Part shown: positions 15,960 to 51,637 of the stretch, one piece after another
Position numbering within the stretch: position 1 is the stretch's first letter
Layout of the letters: each line of letters begins with the position of its first letter
Source: Pseudomonadota bacterium
GTDB taxonomy: Bacteria; Bdellovibrionota_B; Oligoflexia; Silvanigrellales; Silvanigrellaceae
DNA length: 64,000 bases
Direction: 5' to 3'
Assembly: GCA_039799905.1 (NCBI GenBank)
Contig: JBDLRP010000021.1
Location: 224,001-288,000 of the forward strand
The notes under the pieces: model-generated
The model's database searches: none
What the model was told of the DNA's origin: nothing
Seen by the model: the letters and a program-made list of their open reading frames with translations, nothing else
Translations under genes and position numbers: made by a program

Positions 15960-17021
15960 TCAGGCCTCAAGATGGGCGTCAACGACACCGTCCTTTGCCT
16001 CAGGCTGTGACATAGGTGGAGGATTCTTGTCAAAGAGAATGTTGCCGTTTTTGTTAATTGCCTCATGTTGATGCATTGCCTGCCAGAAGTTGGGATCAGG
16101 CATCACTCCCACCTCAAAGGGCGAGTTCTCGAACAGAGCCTGCTGGCCTTCAACGATGCCGTTCCTGATGTTCAGGCTGAAAGCCTGCATATCTTCGGGC
16201 GACTCTGTGAGTCCAGAAACCCGCAGGAAGATAGTGCGAATCCATCCATCTTGGCCCGCGTTCGGCGGCAGGATTGCACCTAAGACCGCAGCCTCTATGC
16301 TGGAGTTGGCTGCCAGAGCATCGGCTGCATGGGCACGCTGCTCCGCTGTAAAGACGTCCGGAGGGAAGGCAACCTGCATTTGACCGTCTCCACCGCCAGC
16401 CTCTGCGCCCTGTTCAGGATTGCCGGCCGCAATTTGAACCGGACTATTGGCGGTTTGAGGAACAATGCCCATGGCGAGTTGGCGGTATTCGACCTTGTTC
16501 AGAATAATGAAGGGGGCGCTGCCAGGGTTGACGACAATGACTTCGGCCGGACTCGGCTCGAGAAGTTTGAAGATGTCCTGCCCCTTGACGGACACATATT
16601 GACCGCCGTCAGGACGCCAGCGCCGTGCGGCAGCTCCGCTTGTGAATGCTGCGGCAAAGGGCGTCCCTGCTGAATTCTGAAGAATTGCGACGGTCATATT
16701 CTGACCATCTTCACCCGCCGCTGGTGCAGCGTTGGGATCCGGCTCGGCGAGTGCGAGGAGAAGCTCGGAGAAAAGTAATTCCTGATAAACTTTTCTGCGG
16801 CTGTCAGGGGTATCGTTACGTGCATTCTCGACCATGGCCAACTCAAGATACTCTGCTGCCTTGGGTTCACCTGATTCCTGACCAGATTCTTGTGCGGTAC
16901 TTGCTCCGACGTCGGAGTTTTGCGCCGGAACAGCCGACTGTGCCGTCGAGGCAGCAGCCGAGTTCGCTGGAGTTTTCGCCGATTCCGCTTCACGCTTGCC
17001 GAACAATTTCTTGAGAACCAT
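15960..17021 (-). CDS. SseB family protein (SseB N and SseB C-like domains)
   Basis: YQELLFSELL, FAAAFTS, VIVVNPGS pattern; GAGG before ATG 17021. Confidence 0.7.
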   Translation of the reverse strand: MVLKKLFGKREAESAKTPANSAAASTAQSAVPAQNSDVGASTAQESGQESGEPKAAEYLELAMVENARNDTPDSRRKVYQELLFSELLLALAEPDPNAAPAAGEDGQNMTVAILQNSAGTPFAAAFTSGAAARRWRPDGGQYVSVKGQDIFKLLEPSPAEVIVVNPGSAPFIILNKVEYRQLAMGIVPQTANSPVQIAAGNPEQGAEAGGGDGQMQVAFPPDVFTAEQRAHAADALAANSSIEAAVLGAILPPNAGQDGWIRTIFLRVSGLTESPEDMQAFSLNIRNGIVEGQQALFENSPFEVGVMPDPNFWQAMHQHEAINKNGNILFDKNPPPMSQPEAKDGVVDAHLEA

Positions 17022-17119
17022 AAACGCCTCTTGGATAAGCAGAGCCAAAACCACTTGTAAACTGCACCGAAGAAGGATGCCCCGAAGAGGTAGCCTTTGC
17101 AAGCAATCTGCAAGTCAGT

Positions 17120-19852
17120 TCATCGATATTTTCTGCGCTTGGCTTCTCGCCAGAGCTCGTCCCAGACGTCCAGACTCAAGCCTTTTGCATACTCCTCAGT
17201 GACGTCAGCACCACGCTCGCGAAGAATGTTCTCCATTCCTTCAAATCGCGAAAGAAACTTGGCAACGCTCGCACGCACCGACAAATCAAAGTCGAGCTCA
17301 GACCCGTCCTTGAGATGCGTTTGATTGAGATAGACGACGACGTTGGTCAGCGCGAAAACGATGTCACCCAGTTCATCGGCAACCTTCTGCCAATCCGGCT
17401 TCTCGACGAAAAGCTCTCGCCGTAGTTCCTCAACTTCAGAAGTCAAATCCGCAAATGTTTGATCAAGAGTTTTCCATGCAAATCCAAGCTTCCACGAAGA
17501 TTTTGAAACGGCGGAAGAATAGCTCAACGTCGGTTGGGCATGCTTTTGGGCAGCCTTGTGGAGCAGCGATTTACTTTGCACCGGCCCATCTTTGTTCTCC
17601 GCCGACTTAATCACATCCCATTGCTTCACAACTTCACCCGCCGTGGTCAGCGTTCCGCTTTCAGGAGCAAAAACGTGCGGATGCCTGCGGATCATCTTTT
17701 CGATGATGCCCCTAAAAACGTCGGACACTTTAAAATGCATCTTCTCGGAAGCAATCTGCGAATTGAGATAAATCTGCAGCAGCACATCTCCGAGTTCGCC
17801 GCAGTAGTTGCGCGCCGATTTCTCATCGCCTTCTTTCGCATAAAGCGCGGCGGCTTCAACAGCCTCATAGGCCTCTTCAATCAGGTAAGATCGCAACGAT
17901 TCAATTGATTGCTCCTTGTCCCACGGACAGCCATCCGGCGCCCGCAGGGCGGCGACGGTCTTTGCAAACAACACTGAATTCAATGCGAGCGAGTACATCT
18001 CGCGGCCGGCATTCAACGTCAGCGGCTGGGCGAGCTTGTAATGCTGGGCAGGATCACCGGAATTTTTTTTTTGTGCCTCTGCCGACTCGCGGGAGATTTT
18101 TTTGTCGGAACCGCCCTGCACAAGATTGATGAGACTCGGCTCGTACTCCGACGGAGAGTCAAAACCTGCCAACTGAAAGATTGTTGCTGCTACGTTGGCA
18201 AGACCTGCTTTCGGCAAATCTTCACGCATTTCAAGAACGCACGGGAGAATTTCCGAATTAAAGATAGCAAATGGAACAGGCGACAGCGTGTGGCTGGTCT
18301 TTGCACGCGGCAATCCATTTTCGCCCATTTGGATTTGGCCGGTTTTTTTGTCTGCTTCAAACATCTCGTCCGCGTTGCCGTGGTCCGCTGTCACAACAAC
18401 GATCGTGTTGGTCTCGCGCGCAGCGGAAAGTATGCGACCCAATGCCAAATCGGCAGCTGCAACCGACAATAACGTGGCAGCAAAATCTCCGGTGTGACCA
18501 ACCATGTCGCCGTTGGCGAAATTGATTCGTCCGACACGGAATGAGTTTTTACGCATCTCGGCGATGGTGCGGTCGGCAATCTCGGCGGATTTCATCCACG
18601 GACGATCCGAAAATGAAGACATATCGGATGGAATTTCGACATAGTGCTCGAGTTCGTCGTTGAATTTTCCGCTGCGATTTCCATTCCAGAAATAGGTCAC
18701 ATGCCCATATTTTTGCGTCTCGCTGCAGGCAAATTGTCTGACTCCGGCGGAGGAAAATAGCTCACCCATCGTATTGCTGATTTGCGGTGGTTCGACCAGA
18801 TATATTTCGGGCAGCTTGAGGTCGCCGTCATATTGCATCATGCCTGCGTAAACTACGCTCGGAAATCTTTTTCGCGTGAATGCCGAAAAATTCTTTTCCG
18901 TCAGTGCCCGGCTTATTTGAATGGCGCGGTCACCGCGGAAATTGAAAAAAACAAAACTGTCACCATCATTCACTGCACCGATGGGTTTGCCATTGGTTCC
19001 AATCACAAACGGAGGAAGATTCTGGTCAGTTTTGAGCCCCTCGCTGCGGAATGTCTTCAACGCGTCATCGAGAGATGCAAACTCGCGCGCCTCGCCCAAA
19101 ACATGGGCGTTGTATCCGCGCTCGACTATCGACCAATCGCTGTCATAACGATCCATGGTGACAAACATTCTTCCGCCGCCACTGGCGACACGGCAATCGA
19201 ATTGAGTGTCGTTGACTGAGTCGAGAAACTCGCGCAATTGACCAGCGTAGATTTCAGCAGTGTCTGGACCGACATCGCGTCCGTCCAACAAAACATGCAG
19301 ACGCACCTGTCGCACGCCATCATTTTTTGCAGCACGAATCAGCGCAAACAAATGAGCAATGTGGCTGTGGACGTTGCCATCGGAAAGCAACCCGCAAAAA
19401 TGCAGGCAGGCGCTGCCGCTTTTGAGTTCCTGCCGGTGCACCGCCGACTGCCAGCCACGCCCTTCAAAAAGGCGACCACTTTCGATTGCGGCATTTACGA
19501 GTTTTGCGCCCTGCGCAAAGACGCGCCCAGCACCGAGGGCATTGTGACCGACCTCGCTGTTGCCCATATCGTCGGCAGACGGAAGTCCAACGCTGGGACC
19601 ATGTGCCAGGAGTGTCCTGCTCAGGGGTTGCTGCATCAGGCGCGTGAGGTGCGGTGTGTAAGCCGCGGCAACCGCATTGCCCGAAACAAAGGCAGCAGAG
19701 GGCAAAACCCCTGCGTGACGGTCGAGTTGCAGTGTGAGATTGTCTTGGGTGTCCTTCCAACCGACACCATCAAGAACCACGACAAGTACTTTGTGGTCGA
19801 TGCTGTTGTTCAGGATAGAATGACGCAGACCGGATGACATTTGGGTTGCCAT
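17120..19852 (-). CDS. gpmI-mazG: Fusion of 2,3-BPG-independent phosphoglycerate mutase and MazG nucleoside-triphosphate pyrophosphohydrolase
   Basis: iPGM: VLDGVG, MGNSEVGHN, SDGNVHSH, FNFRGDR, ETQKYGHVTYF, NGDMVGHTG, TADHGNAD, TSHT. MazG: LRAPDGCPWDKEQ, EEAYE, ELGDVLLQ, RRHPHVF, second ELGD. One uninterrupted frame. Confidence 0.92.
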   Translation of the reverse strand: MATQMSSGLRHSILNNSIDHKVLVVVLDGVGWKDTQDNLTLQLDRHAGVLPSAAFVSGNAVAAAYTPHLTRLMQQPLSRTLLAHGPSVGLPSADDMGNSEVGHNALGAGRVFAQGAKLVNAAIESGRLFEGRGWQSAVHRQELKSGSACLHFCGLLSDGNVHSHIAHLFALIRAAKNDGVRQVRLHVLLDGRDVGPDTAEIYAGQLREFLDSVNDTQFDCRVASGGGRMFVTMDRYDSDWSIVERGYNAHVLGEAREFASLDDALKTFRSEGLKTDQNLPPFVIGTNGKPIGAVNDGDSFVFFNFRGDRAIQISRALTEKNFSAFTRKRFPSVVYAGMMQYDGDLKLPEIYLVEPPQISNTMGELFSSAGVRQFACSETQKYGHVTYFWNGNRSGKFNDELEHYVEIPSDMSSFSDRPWMKSAEIADRTIAEMRKNSFRVGRINFANGDMVGHTGDFAATLLSVAAADLALGRILSAARETNTIVVVTADHGNADEMFEADKKTGQIQMGENGLPRAKTSHTLSPVPFAIFNSEILPCVLEMREDLPKAGLANVAATIFQLAGFDSPSEYEPSLINLVQGGSDKKISRESAEAQKKNSGDPAQHYKLAQPLTLNAGREMYSLALNSVLFAKTVAALRAPDGCPWDKEQSIESLRSYLIEEAYEAVEAAALYAKEGDEKSARNYCGELGDVLLQIYLNSQIASEKMHFKVSDVFRGIIEKMIRRHPHVFAPESGTLTTAGEVVKQWDVIKSAENKDGPVQSKSLLHKAAQKHAQPTLSYSSAVSKSSWKLGFAWKTLDQTFADLTSEVEELRRELFVEKPDWQKVADELGDIVFALTNVVVYLNQTHLKDGSELDFDLSVRASVAKFLSRFEGMENILRERGADVTEEYAKGLSLDVWDELWREAKRRKYR

Positions 19853-19881: not shown

Positions 19882-22059
19882 ATGCTTCAAAACGCTCATA
19901 CTCTGACATCGGCCGGCTTGCCGCGCAATCTGTTCGCAATGTTTGTGCTCATGGTCTGCACAGCATGTCTGCTGTCCGGAACTGTCAAATCGCAAACGGC
20001 ATTCGCCCAGACCGACCCGTTCCTCGTTCCCCTCAAATCTCTCAACAAGATTGATCCCGCCAACGTGGTTCAATTTAAAGTTGTCGCGTTAACAACAAAA
20101 GGCAATGCAGCGACTGCCGAAGTTGAAGTCAGCATTCGCGGCGGCTTCAAGATTTATGACAAGGGGCTGCGCTTCGAATACAAAAGTACTGCCACGCTCA
20201 ATGCGCTCATCCCTTTGACTTTCCAAGCCAATCCGCCTGCCAAGGTGATTCAAGATCCATTTTACAATGAGCCTCGGGCCGTGCACGAGAGTGCTGCACG
20301 CTTCGCACTCGCGAGCGATTTGCCCATGGAGGAAACTGGCACCCTGCGCGTCCGTTTCGAGGCTTGCTCGGTTAACACGTGTCTTTTGCCTGCATATTTC
20401 GTCATTCAGGCCCGCGTGGGTTCATCTTCACGCCCGGAGCCAAAAGGCGACACTGTGACAGGAGCATCCGGCTCAACGGGCAGCCTGAGTCCTCCCTCCA
20501 TGGAAAGTTCGACGCTCGCCTCCGGAAGTAGTGCAGCGTCTGCAGCACCCGCGATGCCCACGCCCGCAATCGAACAATCTCCCGCTCCATCCGCTCCTAC
20601 GCCCGCAGTTGAACTAACACCCAGCCAAGCAGCTCCCGCCTCCACGCCGGCACCTTCATTCCGCCCTGAAAAATCGGCCGATACTTCGCTTGCTGATTCA
20701 ATCACAGCGCAAGTGCAACGCAGCCTGGTTGAACGCAGCTGGTTGCTGTTTCCGGCGTTGTTTCTTGCCGGTCTGCTAATGAATCTGACGCCGTGTGTTT
20801 ATCCGATGATTCCCATCACACTGAACGTTCTCAGCCGCACGGCACCCGCAGATTCTACTGGCCAGCGCAGCCCGTCGCAGTCTGCCGTTCCGGCAATGAT
20901 GTACGTTTTGGGAATTATACTTGCCTATTCTGCAATGGGTGTTGTTGCGGGAATGACCGGCTCAATTTTTGGCAGTCTGCTGCAGAGCAAACTGGTCAAT
21001 GGTGTTCTGGCACTCACCATGTTTCTGCTGGGCCTTTCCATGCTGGATGTTTTTGATCTCAGCAAAATTCAAACAGCCGCCAACAGAATTCCTCTTTCAA
21101 AGAAGTCTCCCTACATGTCCGTTATCACCATGGGAGCAGTCTCGGGTCTGGTGGCCGCACCATGCACCGGGCCAGTTCTCAGCATGCTTCTTCTCTTAGT
21201 GGGACAAACAAAGGATCCCGTTTATGGGTTCGTGCTCATGAGCGTTTTTGCAGCTGGATTCGGAGCCCCTTATTTGGCTCTCGGACTGCTTTCGCAGCAG
21301 CTCAAGCGACTCCCCAAAGCTGGTTTTGCGATGAACATCGTCAAGAATGTATTTGCAGCCCTGATGTTCTCTTTGGCGCTGTATTATCTGAAACCGATGT
21401 TGCAAAACTTGGAGTTTGTCGCACTGCTCTATATCCGCCCGCCGGTAGTCGGTGTTGCTGCGGTCGTTATGCTCACTGTGGTATTTCTCGTTCTGCAGTC
21501 AAAGAAACCCACCAGCGCCCTGCGCACAATAGGACTGCAGACAGGCCTTTCGCTCCTCGCCCTGTGGATGGCGCTCTACCTGATTAAAGGCTTCATCGCT
21601 GGCGAAAAAACAGCTCTGCCTTCTCTGAGCCGAATCAATGATCCGCTCGAAATTCCAAATCCGCAGTCGCAGGAGACCGACGGCGTCCGCTGGATGAAAG
21701 ATTGGCAACAGGCTGTGCGCGCCGCGAAAGAACAAAACAAAGGGCTCATCGTGGATGCGTGGGCACAATGGTGTGCTGCGTGTCTGAAGATGGATGCCGA
21801 AGTCTGGAACGAGCCCGGAGTTGAGGCCCTCATCAATCAGCACTTCATTGCGCTTAAGATCGATTTCACAGAATCAAATCCGCAATCCGAGGAGCTCACC
21901 AAACGTTGGGATTTGTCGGGACTGCCGGCAGTGGGAATTTATCCGGCCGGTTCAGACTTTGCCGGACAACCGGTGGTCTTGTTCCGTGAAGCCGCCACAG
22001 TCAGCAGCTTCCATCAGGCGGTGCAGAAAATCTTCAACGGAGAGCTGCAGAAAAAATAA
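19882..22059 (+). CDS. dsbD: Thiol:disulfide interchange protein DsbD
   Basis: N-domain CSVNTCLLP, TM domain LTPCVYPMIP and APCTGP, thioredoxin WCAAC; the start may instead be 19939. Confidence 0.92.
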   Translation: MLQNAHTLTSAGLPRNLFAMFVLMVCTACLLSGTVKSQTAFAQTDPFLVPLKSLNKIDPANVVQFKVVALTTKGNAATAEVEVSIRGGFKIYDKGLRFEYKSTATLNALIPLTFQANPPAKVIQDPFYNEPRAVHESAARFALASDLPMEETGTLRVRFEACSVNTCLLPAYFVIQARVGSSSRPEPKGDTVTGASGSTGSLSPPSMESSTLASGSSAASAAPAMPTPAIEQSPAPSAPTPAVELTPSQAAPASTPAPSFRPEKSADTSLADSITAQVQRSLVERSWLLFPALFLAGLLMNLTPCVYPMIPITLNVLSRTAPADSTGQRSPSQSAVPAMMYVLGIILAYSAMGVVAGMTGSIFGSLLQSKLVNGVLALTMFLLGLSMLDVFDLSKIQTAANRIPLSKKSPYMSVITMGAVSGLVAAPCTGPVLSMLLLLVGQTKDPVYGFVLMSVFAAGFGAPYLALGLLSQQLKRLPKAGFAMNIVKNVFAALMFSLALYYLKPMLQNLEFVALLYIRPPVVGVAAVVMLTVVFLVLQSKKPTSALRTIGLQTGLSLLALWMALYLIKGFIAGEKTALPSLSRINDPLEIPNPQSQETDGVRWMKDWQQAVRAAKEQNKGLIVDAWAQWCAACLKMDAEVWNEPGVEALINQHFIALKIDFTESNPQSEELTKRWDLSGLPAVGIYPAGSDFAGQPVVLFREAATVSSFHQAVQKIFNGELQKK

Positions 22060-22520: not shown

Positions 22521-23663
22521 TCACTGCGGCAAGGATTCAGGAGCGTCAATTCTCCAACGAGCCCTGCGGACAAACAACGTCAGAGCCACGCCAAACAAAA
22601 CAGCACCTACCAACGAGCCGAGAATAATCAGAGGCATCCGGTTGGGAACAACGCCAATCACCTCGAAACTGAAAAACGGCAGGCCATTACCCTCGCCACG
22701 GTTGACTATCTGTACACGGCGGGGTGGCATGCTGGGGTTCATTTGCACTTCGCGCTGACTCACCTGAGTCGCCAGTCCGGCGTTGGCGATGCGTGGCGGC
22801 CACACATTCCAGTTCTCACTCAGCGAACCAAAAAGCCCTTTGAAAGGAGCAGGAACTTCAAAGAGAATTGCGACCTGTTCACCGGGAAATCCGGCAAGTT
22901 TGGAATTCTTCCAAACCGCACGCCCGGAAGGAGCCCTCAGACGAAAATCACTCGAAATCGTGACGGCCAGCCCCTGACTGCCCTCGGGAAGTACGACTGC
23001 AGGCAAACCGTTCCAATTGACCACTTGAATGGACTTGGCAAGCTGCTCGGGCTTGGTCTCAACAATTTGCCAGTCGTACAAATCCTCAGGCACCGCCATG
23101 ACGACCATCGTCGACCCACCCTGTGACGAAGGCACCGCAAAACTTGTCACATAATGCGCAACAATTTCTGATTGAGCAGGCGAGACAATGTAGCGGCTGG
23201 AGGTCGGCAAAAAGACGCCGGGTTCAAGGATGTGCAACGACTCCTGAGCGCGCTCGGCTTTGGCGATTCCAGAAAACAAAAGCGCACACACACCCACCAG
23301 CAGCAATGCAGCAAGGCTGGCTGAACCCTTTTGGGATTTCGCCGTGCTAAGCGCCGCGCCGGCAGAATTCTGCGGCAAAAAAGGAAGCTCTGCGCGCTGA
23401 AGCCGAAGGCAGAGCGAAACCAATGCATCGAAGCAATCAGTGTCACTGAGTGCACCTAACCTCTGTTCGCTCGACTGACCGGTCGTTAGGCGGGAGAGCA
23501 GCTGATCACGCAAGTTGAGCGCCTGCCGGAGCTCAACCTCATCCGAAAAGCCTTTGTATGAGGCCGAGAACACCTCCATGTTTTCGGCGACGAACAAAGG
23601 CGAAAGTACAAACCAAATGACCAACAATGAAAGAGCGATCGCGAGAATGAGTGTAAAAATCAT
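22521..23663 (-). CDS. Membrane protein with a CcmI/CycH-like N-terminus and a periplasmic domain
   Basis: Start overlaps the ccmF stop; TM ending WFVLSPLF then a charged helix, a second TM, a periplasmic region and a C-terminal TM. Confidence 0.6.
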   Translation of the reverse strand: MIFTLILAIALSLLVIWFVLSPLFVAENMEVFSASYKGFSDEVELRQALNLRDQLLSRLTTGQSSEQRLGALSDTDCFDALVSLCLRLQRAELPFLPQNSAGAALSTAKSQKGSASLAALLLVGVCALLFSGIAKAERAQESLHILEPGVFLPTSSRYIVSPAQSEIVAHYVTSFAVPSSQGGSTMVVMAVPEDLYDWQIVETKPEQLAKSIQVVNWNGLPAVVLPEGSQGLAVTISSDFRLRAPSGRAVWKNSKLAGFPGEQVAILFEVPAPFKGLFGSLSENWNVWPPRIANAGLATQVSQREVQMNPSMPPRRVQIVNRGEGNGLPFFSFEVIGVVPNRMPLIILGSLVGAVLFGVALTLFVRRARWRIDAPESLPQ

Positions 23664-26155
23664 CCCTGCCCTCCTTCGAGCTTGCGGGCAGAAATGAAGT
23701 CGCGGAGCGCTTTTTCCATCACTTCGCGCTCAGCGAGTTCGCGTCTTCGCGAAGTGCGGATCGCACCGACGAGAAAAACAGGCCCCAGAACAAGTCCGGC
23801 AATTGGAATCACCCAAATTGTTTTTCCGAATGTGCTGCCTGAATCCGGCTGGCGCAAAATCCATTCTCCATAGCGATCTCTAAAAAAGCTGATGATTTCT
23901 GCCTTGCTCTTACCTTCTGCAACCTGGCGCTCAATCTCGCGCCGCATCGCCGTACTCTGCGGAGTCTCGCTCTCAAGTATGCTCACACCCTGACACGTAG
24001 GGCAGCGAAGTTCATCGCCTATCTCGAGCAGTTCTTTTGAGTACTGCAGACGGGCTTTGGATTCATCCGCCATCGCAGTTCCTGAAAAACCAAACGCAAC
24101 GAGCAATACAGCAACGCTGATAACGAGTGCCGATTGAACCTTGTGAGCACGCTTGACGGGAGCCAGCACATCATCCAAAAGGTCGCCCTCGTCGGTTGCC
24201 GACTCGAGCATCAGGCCGTTTGAACTCACGTCAACACTGCGCCTTTTGATGCGGTGACTGAGGCCAACCAGAGTTCCCAGAACCATTATCACCAAACTCG
24301 TCCAGACGAATTTGACTGTGGGATTGACGTGCATCTTGAGTGAAATCTGATTGGTCTTTGAATCAAAAAACGCGAGCACCAGATAGAGATCGTGCCAAAA
24401 AGTCGAGTGAATACCAATTTCATTGAGCCACTCTTCCTTGTTTGTGTATTTACTGCGTGTTGGCAAAACTTCTGCCACGTTGCCCCGACTGTCTTTGGCC
24501 TCAATCACGGCAGCAGCGTAAGTTGCGTTGAACTCCTGCTTGTAATCCATTCCCTTGAAGGTGAGGGTGTAGTCATAAAATTGTGTCGACTGCCCCTGTG
24601 AGAGCTGGGCCTCGGCCTGAATGCCGCGATAGCCTCCCAAAAAGCCAGCCATCGAAAGCAAAAATCCAAGATGGACAATCCATGATCCCAAGTAGGGACG
24701 ATTGAACTTCAACAACGCCTGCGCGTTCCAGCGGATAGCCTTGAGGCGGAAAACCAGGTCCATGACCATGACAAACGCAGTCCAAAGAATCAGCGCAAAG
24801 CCAATGATGGAACGGACATCAAGACCCTTGTGCCAAGCCAGCACAGCTGTCAGCGCAATCGCCCAGATGGCAGGATAGAGGAGTCCACTGACAGGATCTT
24901 CAATTTTCCCGCTCCGCCAACGCATCAGGTTGCCAACACCTAGCAGACCAACCAACCCCACTCCGATCCACGGAGCAAATGCATTGAAGAATGGCTGCTG
25001 GATGGAAATCTTGATTCCGCGCACAGCCTCGACAATCAGCGGCAACAACGTTCCGATGCAAACCAGGGCGAGCAGGAAAAGCAAAAAGAAGTTTGTAAAC
25101 AACAGCGCGCTTTCCTTGGACACCGTCCATGTCTGGGCCTGCGCAGCGCCCTGAAGCAAATGACCGCGCATGGAAACAAGGACAATCATAATCAGGGTCC
25201 AGACGACAATATAAGTCAGGTAGGCGGGACCTATGTCGCTCTCGGCGAATGAGTGGACTGAACTGATGACACCTGAACGGGTGATGAACGTACCCAAAAA
25301 GGTCAACACGAAAGCCACTGCCGAAAGCGATACAGCAAGGCGCGGAAGACGGTTGGTTTTATCGAGAATCAACAACGTGTGCAGCAGGGAAGTTCCCGCC
25401 AGCCAAGGCATGAACGAACTGTTTTCAACCGGATCCCACGCCCAGTAACCAGCCCACCCGAGCTCGACGTAGGCCCATTTTCCACCAAGAAAAATACCCA
25501 CCGTGAGAATTGCCCAGCCCGCCAATGTCCAACGCCGAACGCTGACAAGCCAGTCGGGCGTAAAAGAACCGCGCAAGAGAGCAGCGACTGAATAGCCGAA
25601 GGGAACTATCAAAGAGCAATATCCAATAAACAGACTCGGAGGGTGAGCTGCCATGTAAGGATTCTGCAAGAGCGCATTCATTCCTTGCCCAACTTGCTGC
25701 ACCGGAAACATACGCGTCAGAGGCGCAGAAGCCCAAACCAACAGCAAGGTCATAAAAGAAAGGCTGAAGCCGTATGCACACAAAAGACCCGGCATCAGCG
25801 GTTCGTTTTTTTCCCGCACAGAAACAAGTGAAATCGTCACAATGACAGCCATGATCATTGTCCACAGAAGGTGGCTTCCCTCGAGGGAGCTCCAAAATGC
25901 TGTCAGCAGATAAATCGGCGGCATGTCGGCGGCCGAGTTTCTGAACACATAGCCTATCGAAAAGTCATGTGTGATGAGCGAAATCCAGAGAACACCCGAG
26001 GCGAAGAGCACGCAGGCGCTCACACCAATCAGGGCGTTGCGTCCGCTATACAACACTCCGCGCTGCGGTCGTGCCAGCGACAGAAAACCCATGCTCATCC
26101 CGTAAACCGACAAACACAGTGCCAATACGAGTGCATAAAAACCAAGTTCTACCAT
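23660..26155 (-). CDS. ccmF: Cytochrome c biogenesis haem lyase CcmF fused to a CcmH domain
   Basis: WSSLEGS, HPP, WAYVELGWAGYWAWDPVENSSFMPW, SVHSFA, HLG; C-terminal LRCPTCQ and RYGEWIL (CcmH). Confidence 0.93.
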   Translation of the reverse strand: MVELGFYALVLALCLSVYGMSMGFLSLARPQRGVLYSGRNALIGVSACVLFASGVLWISLITHDFSIGYVFRNSAADMPPIYLLTAFWSSLEGSHLLWTMIMAVIVTISLVSVREKNEPLMPGLLCAYGFSLSFMTLLLVWASAPLTRMFPVQQVGQGMNALLQNPYMAAHPPSLFIGYCSLIVPFGYSVAALLRGSFTPDWLVSVRRWTLAGWAILTVGIFLGGKWAYVELGWAGYWAWDPVENSSFMPWLAGTSLLHTLLILDKTNRLPRLAVSLSAVAFVLTFLGTFITRSGVISSVHSFAESDIGPAYLTYIVVWTLIMIVLVSMRGHLLQGAAQAQTWTVSKESALLFTNFFLLFLLALVCIGTLLPLIVEAVRGIKISIQQPFFNAFAPWIGVGLVGLLGVGNLMRWRSGKIEDPVSGLLYPAIWAIALTAVLAWHKGLDVRSIIGFALILWTAFVMVMDLVFRLKAIRWNAQALLKFNRPYLGSWIVHLGFLLSMAGFLGGYRGIQAEAQLSQGQSTQFYDYTLTFKGMDYKQEFNATYAAAVIEAKDSRGNVAEVLPTRSKYTNKEEWLNEIGIHSTFWHDLYLVLAFFDSKTNQISLKMHVNPTVKFVWTSLVIMVLGTLVGLSHRIKRRSVDVSSNGLMLESATDEGDLLDDVLAPVKRAHKVQSALVISVAVLLVAFGFSGTAMADESKARLQYSKELLEIGDELRCPTCQGVSILESETPQSTAMRREIERQVAEGKSKAEIISFFRDRYGEWILRQPDSGSTFGKTIWVIPIAGLVLGPVFLVGAIRTSRRRELAEREVMEKALRDFISARKLEGGQG

Positions 26156-51370: not shown

Positions 51371-51637
51371 TTAAGCTTCTGCTCCTGCAGGATAAACACT
51401 GACGCGCTGACGAGTGCGGGTCACGAACTCGAACTTCACGACGCCGTCAATCTTGCTGAACAGTGTGAAGTCACGACCCATGCCTACGTTCTGGCCTGGG
51501 TGAATCTTCGTGCCAACCTGACGGATGATGATGTTGCCAGCGCGAACGCTTTCGCCACCGTAAGTTTTGACGCCACGATACTTAGGATTACTGTCACGAC
51601 CGTTTTTGGTACTACCACCGGCTTTTTTGGTTGCCAT
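51371..51637 (-). CDS. rpmA: 50S ribosomal protein L27
   Basis: [23 protein letters not shown]. Confidence 0.98.

Follow-up and report, generated by a model that had tools for sequence, protein, structure and literature searches.

The locus and the fused protein

The window, a stretch of 64,000 nucleotides (positions 224,001 to 288,000 of contig JBDLRP010000021.1) from a member of the Silvanigrellaceae, a family of freshwater bacteria, carries on its minus strand a single open reading frame (ORF) in which gpmI, the gene for cofactor-independent phosphoglycerate mutase (iPGM), is joined to mazG, the gene for a nucleoside triphosphate (NTP) pyrophosphohydrolase. Our focus is on this fusion and, in particular, on the joint between its halves, where the coding strand contains a run of ten A residues (A10). 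The parts of the protein are:

17120..19852, minus strand: gpmI-mazG fusion ORF (P0001), 910 amino acids (aa), a single open frame in translation
18128..19798, minus strand: iPGM part, residues 19-575, trypanosomatid/plant type by its structural relatives
18017..18127, minus strand: linker, residues 576-612, in which relatives differ; residues 581-598 have a predicted local distance difference test score (pLDDT) below 50
17597..18016, minus strand: MazG N-terminal domain, with motifs GCPWD, EEAYE, GELGD and RRHPHVF
17123..17560, minus strand: MazG C-terminal domain, in which E806, E827 and D830 align to the Mg ligands E172, E193 and D196 of E. coli

The original prediction for this locus described a single ORF of about 910 aa with the iPGM motifs, followed by a complete two-domain MazG with two ELGD motifs, and both descriptions hold. 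Pfam places iPGM_N at residues 119-342, Metalloenzyme at 21-565 and MazG at 648-728, and the hidden Markov model scores exceed the curated cut-offs for iPGM (TIGR01307, 383.4 bits versus 330.65) and for MazG (TIGR00444, 185.4 bits versus 148.3, two tandem domains), while the stricter PRK09562 cut-off for MazG is missed (193.9 versus 208). The iPGM motifs are found at the expected sites and both ELGD motifs, E686-D689 and E827-D830, lie in the MazG half. Residues D28, S99, D449, H453, D490, H491 and H521, which we take to be the catalytic Ser and the Asp/His metal ligands of iPGM, are invariant across 42 fused proteins, and the catalytic and metal residues align to those of structures 3NVL and 3IGY, the first strand excepted. 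Among solved structures the mutase part scores highest with the enzymes of Trypanosoma brucei (548 bits) and Leishmania mexicana (537 bits), as against 296-308 bits for Bacillus enzymes, and Foldseek ranks the solved relatives in the same order, so that the plant/trypanosomatid-like subfamily proposed earlier is the right one. The linker had been put at about 50 aa; a linker is indeed present, but it comprises ~37 residues (576-612) before the first MazG helix.

The MazG half matches E. coli MazG (3CRA) over its full length (E 4.5e-34), and the residues aligned above, E172, E193 and D196, are those named as Mg ligands in the available portion of PMC10014863. Two other E. coli residues, K168 and E171, are replaced by Asp802 and Ser805 in the window, with the same changes in most family members; this alteration of the C-terminal domain (17123-17560) perhaps signifies a different substrate range.

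That the fusion is real is close to certain. Contigs from runs X4 and X8, neither marked as a possible source, cover the whole gene without gaps and differ from it by 17 and 64 substitutions, respectively; a contig from run X6 matches positions 17862-18173, including the linker, without any difference, and no indel is present in the three contigs across the A10 run. Because independent contigs span the gene and the linker is matched exactly, an assembly artefact is rejected, and the 21 family genomes in which the fusion is in frame speak against it as well. Two short contigs from RNA run X20 fall on the gene, neither of them over the linker. The 910-aa ORF is the sole match to either the iPGM half or the MazG half in the window's genome (93.8% complete), and since no cofactor-dependent mutase scores over the cut-off in this genome (one does in 1 of the 33 family genomes), the fused iPGM is probably the cell's mutase.

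An AlphaFold2 model of the fusion, computed from a 42-row alignment, has a mean pLDDT of 82 and a predicted template modelling score of 0.59, with low confidence at residues 581-598, which are predicted to be disordered. With iPGM and MazG modelled as two chains a score of 0.09 was obtained (mark 0.32), which speaks neither for nor against contact between them. A scan for promoters and terminators gave nothing above shuffled sequences, and the coding strand of the linker is without a terminator.

Distribution of the fusion

We searched 127 genomes of the class, 33 from the window's family (Silvanigrellaceae by database names) and 94 from outside it, and among the matches listed full-length open fusions are confined to the family. 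The comparison with orthologues recommended in the original prediction shows the fusion to be conserved in relatives, in frame in 21 of the 33 family genomes. In a search of 1.84 billion representatives with a query that spans the joint, 3 of the best 150 matches cover both halves, all of them family-like (P0151 and two family-like fragments). The closest database proteins carry the names Silvanigrellaceae, Silvanigrellales, Fluviispira and Silvanigrella, while a scan of metagenome and genome contigs with a MazG alignment returned generic MazG and no family loci among the matches listed. Apparent long frames in five genomes outside the family (G034, G036, G043, G046 and G070) each hold a stop and were discarded.

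Loci were inspected in 28 of the 94 non-family genomes. The genes gpmI and mazG are adjacent in 19 of these, not adjacent within the stretch inspected in 9, and fused in none. All 18 adjacent pairs that were scored have an ATG or GTG of their own for mazG and no run above A7, and the 19th (G069), read by eye, has an overlapping stop and start. Among unrelated mazG loci, 1 of 160 in the matches listed has an iPGM nearby, an Oligoflexales record. To judge from these comparisons, the fusion is family-specific and the gene pair pre-exists as plain neighbors across the class.

The fused protein is already in databases, under the name iPGM. The entry of Silvanigrella aquatica is fused (897 aa), and those of Fluviispira sanaruensis and F. 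multicolorata are free iPGMs of 581 aa with a Lys tail at the end. The fusion had been thought undescribed, and our literature searches, in which most subscription papers were not covered, found no published account of it, nor any report of slippage at mazG or phosphoglycerate mutase or of frameshifting in Silvanigrella. MazG, phosphoglycerate, gpmI and frameshift are not mentioned in PMC11656739 or PMC12321486, and neither MazG nor phosphoglycerate is mentioned in the available portions of PMC3711429 and PMC5009743 or in two of the three supplements of the former.

The joint in relatives

The 33 family genomes comprise 21 with the joint in frame, 8 with the joint out of frame and 4 special cases, namely an assembly gap before the run (G008), no iPGM in the slot (G018), no mazG (G021) and a MazG reduced to its C-terminal domain (G124). 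In every out-of-frame genome a run of A9-11 (A10 or longer in 7 of 8) lies 9-10 codons after the YEPSL motif, iPGM ends 0-4 codons later, and MazG is in the -1 frame, which is open back to the run; +1 joints number zero. A run of at least nine A residues thus marks the frame change in 8 of 8, as A10 marks the linker of the window. None of the eight offers an ATG or GTG start for MazG and four lack even a TTG, while the addition of one A joins the iPGM and MazG frames in all of them.

An open -1 frame of 25 codons is expected by chance at a level of 5-10%. As background, 20 stretches with 288 kb of coding sequence were sampled from three out-of-frame genomes, all AT-rich; they hold 18 A9 runs and no run of A10 or more, and none of the 20 [QEK]KK[NK] peptides reaches A10, versus ~64% expected from codon use. 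The ratio of nonsynonymous to synonymous substitution rates for MazG is 0.135-0.177 in all five out-of-frame pairs tested, similar to in-frame pairs, and by this measure the out-of-frame MazG is under purifying selection. The joint is therefore a site kept beyond chance with a selected frame downstream, although less clearly so for the window's clade.

In-frame versions of the joint are found beside out-of-frame sisters (G023/G121, G125/G022 and P0029/G119). In a quick IQ-TREE phylogeny of 30 genomes, from which G018, G021 and G124 were left out, the two states interleave with at least 5 changes, and a FastTree of iPGM that includes database proteins, some of them duplicated, has 8. The deep branches are mostly in frame; the trees leave the direction of the switch unfixed. 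Among database clusters, known as protein records only, 19 of free family iPGM end in a Lys-Lys tail and 15 end without one, and 6 clusters hold iPGM fused to the C-terminal domain of MazG alone. Such C-terminal-only fusions, in frame in L053 (G124), P0132, P0139, P0141, P0145, P0148 and P0170, arise at more than one place in the tree.

The A10 run of the window and a second run in dnaX

The features of the window's linker that bear on slippage are:

18063..18072, minus strand: A10 run in the linker, codons of residues 594-597, predicted slippage site
18054..18056, minus strand: TGA two codons past the run if one A is added, which would give a free iPGM of 599 aa
18019..18021, minus strand: TGA met after loss of one A or gain of two, for a free iPGM of 610-611 aa
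18097..18103, minus strand: A7 run, earlier in the linker, by its length probably too short for efficient slipping
17996..17998, minus strand: Met619, which lies 22 codons ahead of GCPW and might act as an internal start, with a weak ribosome site; 3 of 21 in-frame genomes have an ATG here

Coding A10 runs are rare in the window's genome, with three in 2.54 Mb of long ORFs: one in the linker, one in dnaX and one in an unrelated ORF. Four genomes that form one clade retain the linker run (the window's genome G000 as well as G003, G008 and G010; 96% support in the Shimodaira-Hasegawa-like approximate likelihood ratio test), even though 63-66% of four-fold sites differ and flanking residues change. 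The third run lies in G000:C32:46559-47707 (minus strand), presumably an M23 peptidase from its motifs, and is followed by stops 16 and 6 codons on.

The dnaX gene (G000:C3:51284-53287, minus strand) has its A10 at 51465-51474 (L269), ~63 codons before the end, and shares flanking letters with the run in the linker. Of the 33 family genomes 30 were examined for dnaX, and a run of A9-10 is kept in all 11 that belong to the window's genus; in 10 of them dnaX is in frame and one added A leads to a stop after 0-1 codons, and in one it is split into two ORFs. The run is present in G013, G014, G019 and G020 as well, and the two-ORF form in G012 and G018. These arrangements correspond to the two dnaX types of PMC5009743 and PMC3711429, and the dnaX of this family probably undergoes gamma/tau slippage of the Thermus type.

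Proposed mechanism

Taken over the sequence data, our reading is that polymerase likely slips on the A10 run of the linker and that the gene would yield two products, the 910-aa fusion and a free mutase of ~600 aa, to which we assign a probability of roughly 0.6. As to its parts, recoding of some kind at the joint of the -1 genomes is very likely, a transcriptional rather than ribosomal origin for it is likely, and the window's own run is probably active. Transcriptional slippage is preferred because the runs are 9-12 long, both polarities occur and conserved stimulators are absent. In vivo, efficient slippage occurs on A/T runs of at least 9, and dnaX is known in both one-ORF and two-ORF forms, according to the available portions of PMC5009743 and PMC3711429; rescue by slippage in endosymbionts and the limits of slippage in E. 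coli are described in the accessible parts of PMC4389277 and PMC6260861.

The sequences show gpmI and mazG as neighboring genes across the class and, in the family, a joint that has flipped repeatedly between in-frame and -1 states at a poly-A run. On this proposal, unslipped mRNA in the -1 genomes would yield free iPGM, and one added A would be the sole route to MazG; in genomes such as the window's, in frame and with a run, the proportions of the two products would be reversed, and in-frame genomes that lost the run would make the fusion only. The likely outcome is that MazG would be dosed in proportion to iPGM expression and some of the mutase would stay untethered from the MazG dimer. The two enzymes most likely act independently, iPGM as a glycolytic mutase and MazG as a house-cleaning NTP pyrophosphohydrolase, the roles by which their families are known.

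A more speculative extension, which we think improbable, is that the joint serves as a nucleotide-sensing switch, with a start-less MazG dosed by the stutter of polymerase on the A run. If the stutter depended on how much ATP is present relative to the next nucleotide, an imbalance of the pools would adjust production of an NTP-degrading enzyme, scaled to a glycolytic gene. On this reading the fusion would also have been caught at all stages: coupled genes, joined by slippage, in frame with a run, in frame without one, trimmed and lost.

A number of observations weigh against slippage at the window's run. No run of 9 or more is found in in-frame joints in 15 of 21 genomes, including 9 of 13 in the window's own genus, so that two products are not required. 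One of the three A10 runs of the genome resides in an unrelated gene, and such a run can thus be tolerated without known use. A stop within 2 codons of the window's run has an 11% probability by chance and is weak evidence. The dnaX gene lacks a run of at least 9 in all 8 out-of-frame genomes, which limits the internal control that it provides to the window's genus. Family-type MazG also occurs as stand-alone proteins whose N-termini are plausible (P0203, P0206 and P0208, known as protein records only), and the out-of-frame sites, 8 of 8, hold A_AAA_AAN heptamers that fit -1 ribosomal frameshifting. Finally, in E. coli, A runs provoke less polymerase slippage than T runs do (available text of PMC6260861).

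Alternative explanations

Recoding at the joint could instead be ribosomal, with a -1 shift on A_AAA_AAN, as in E. coli dnaX, making the fusion in the out-of-frame genomes. All eight of these are -1, and an in-frame X_XXY_YYZ heptamer is contained in each of their runs; A_AAA_AAG and A_AAA_AAA are known shift motifs (accessible part of PMC3711429), and the shorter Lys tail of P0130 may reflect a run of only ~7 (protein record only). However, the runs, at 9-12, are longer than a heptamer needs to be, and in G023 and G125 the nearest stop sits in the frame reached by loss of an A. The stimulators of programmed -1 frameshifting, a 3' stem-loop and an upstream Shine-Dalgarno sequence, were not found: folding downstream of the run gives z below -2 at 1 of 15 sites, and anti-Shine-Dalgarno pairing is weak in the 8 out-of-frame genomes, with no consistent ribosome site. 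With neither stem-loop nor ribosome site, polymerase slippage is favored, and we regard ribosomal shifting as unlikely. A change at the level of DNA, phase variation in which the run switches the MazG tail on and off in sub-populations, would account for run lengths and frames that differ between sister genomes and for G125 and P0130, whose iPGMs are identical in the tree alignment and whose joints are in different states; poly-A tracts are known as sites of this kind. It does not readily explain why eight genomes are -1 and none +1, or why the out-of-frame state is the stable majority in one clade with MazG still under purifying selection, and three independent contigs cross the window's run without an indel, contigs being apt to drop rare variants. 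Phase variation strikes us as improbable. Sequencing error is very unlikely to have created the out-of-frame joints, as is an arrangement of two genes with a non-AUG start for MazG. It is true that homopolymers are generally prone to error and that TTG codons are available in 4 of 8, but the same picture emerges from eight genomes, assembled into anything from 1 to 500 contigs, and from 19 protein clusters of several sources, the TTGs lie at differing places 5-36 codons before GCPW with none at all in the other 4, and in none of the eight does a stop interrupt the -1 frame between the run and MazG.

Two further alternatives were weighed. The A10 of the window might be inactive, a relic or simply a consequence of Lys codons, with the fusion as sole product and recoding limited to relatives. 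The many in-frame genomes that lack a run are in keeping with this, as is the modest value of its retention in two saturated relatives, for which the chance is ~0.03 given the peptide. Against it, the letters are the same as those of the conserved dnaX site of the same genome, only 3 of 33 peptides there that could be encoded with A10 in fact are, and in-frame linkers hold the peptide motif more often than expected (13 of 47, versus 2.9 in shuffles). We give an inert run little chance. The remaining possibility, put forward in the original prediction, is cross-regulation, whereby iPGM and MazG would couple carbon flux to levels of NTPs or of the alarmone (p)ppGpp. Consistent with some such tie, the pair is adjacent in well over half of the non-family loci inspected, as opposed to the single case among unrelated mazG loci, and in 6 clusters the C-terminal domain of MazG stays fused after loss of the N-terminal one. 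The linker, however, is variable in sequence among family relatives and predicted to be disordered, and mazG is deleted in G021 and G025, which together do not favor a tight interface; the MazG of G018 is borne by a different N-terminal domain, and a cyanophage MazG is without (p)ppGpp hydrolysis (available portion of PMC6850273). Cross-regulation appears doubtful to us.

Relation to known systems

The nearest parallel is PGK-TIM of Thermotoga maritima, where a glycolytic gene and its downstream neighbor are joined by frameshifting (available text of PMC4256274). As at gpmI-mazG, the frameshift lies at the 3' end of the first gene and yields a bifunctional protein. In the accessible description both Thermotoga partners are glycolytic, whereas the passenger here is a nucleotide pyrophosphohydrolase, and the Silvanigrellaceae joint, unlike PGK-TIM, has in-frame, out-of-frame and run-less states side by side. 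In dnaX a poly-A run likewise produces a short and a long product, and both genomic polarities exist: one ORF with 9 A and stops in both other frames in Thermus thermophilus, and two ORFs in the Chlorobi type (available portions of PMC5009743 and PMC3711429). There, however, the products are two forms of one subunit, while at gpmI-mazG a second, unrelated enzyme depends on the event. The tssM genes also come in both polarities, with an A11 before a premature stop and 20-25% slippage in tssM1 of Citrobacter rodentium and the opposite arrangement in tssM3 of Yersinia pseudotuberculosis (accessible part of PMC4256274), but they give one structural protein in two lengths rather than a fusion of two enzymes.

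On the MazG side, YabN, with its tetrapyrrole-methylase-like domain, and M. tuberculosis MazG tolerate N-terminal additions and, like the window's MazG, have two EEXXE-type domains; the members studied are dimeric. They differ from it in that the partner here is a full enzyme of central metabolism and the join is slippery. The window's mutase is 46-47% identical to the trypanosomatid iPGMs (PDB 3NVL, 3IGY), with the same motifs and fold, and is set apart from them by its MazG extension.

To our knowledge, few cases of conserved recoding in chromosomal housekeeping genes exist. The gpmI-mazG joint is a candidate for one in central metabolism, and both fused and Lys-tailed forms are represented among the cultured members of the family. 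It would belong to a known class, bifunctional proteins made by recoding; what is new is a slippery iPGM-MazG joint with mixed states in one family. Its interest rests less on the pairing of enzymes than on this slippery joint, which was absent from the original prediction, and it allows two ideas to be tested, that slippage is a reversible stage on the way between fused and split genes and that it can dose a passenger enzyme. Where the joint is out of frame, the annotation of MazG as a gene of its own, and of its start, is likely to be wrong.

Neighboring genes and other observations

Two neighbors of the fusion are kept in the family, each identified by a domain match:

15960..17102, minus strand: SseB-domain gene, downstream
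19882..22059, plus strand: dsbD-like gene, divergent, upstream

In G018 the slot between dsbD and sseB is occupied by a family-type MazG (L033:2462-4657, minus strand) that bears an N-terminal domain of ~240 aa belonging to no known family; proteins P0044-P0047, P0049-P0052, P0202 and P0207 are of the same type. This domain was considered as a decayed iPGM and the idea was dropped (hhalign probability 0.1-0.3%, no Pfam match and no Atlas hit). The genome has a cofactor-dependent mutase instead, the match to which, at G018:C561:1094-1693, is in two pieces and possibly frameshifted.

Elsewhere in the window, at 23660-26155 on the minus strand, a CcmF-type cytochrome c biogenesis protein and a CcmH domain share one ORF of 831 aa. 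The databases also contain fusions of MazG to a GDSL lipase-like domain (P0088, P0089, P0095 and others), with 621 members in one cluster, and, in P0116, a MazG joined to an enolase C-terminal domain that is possibly a chimera.

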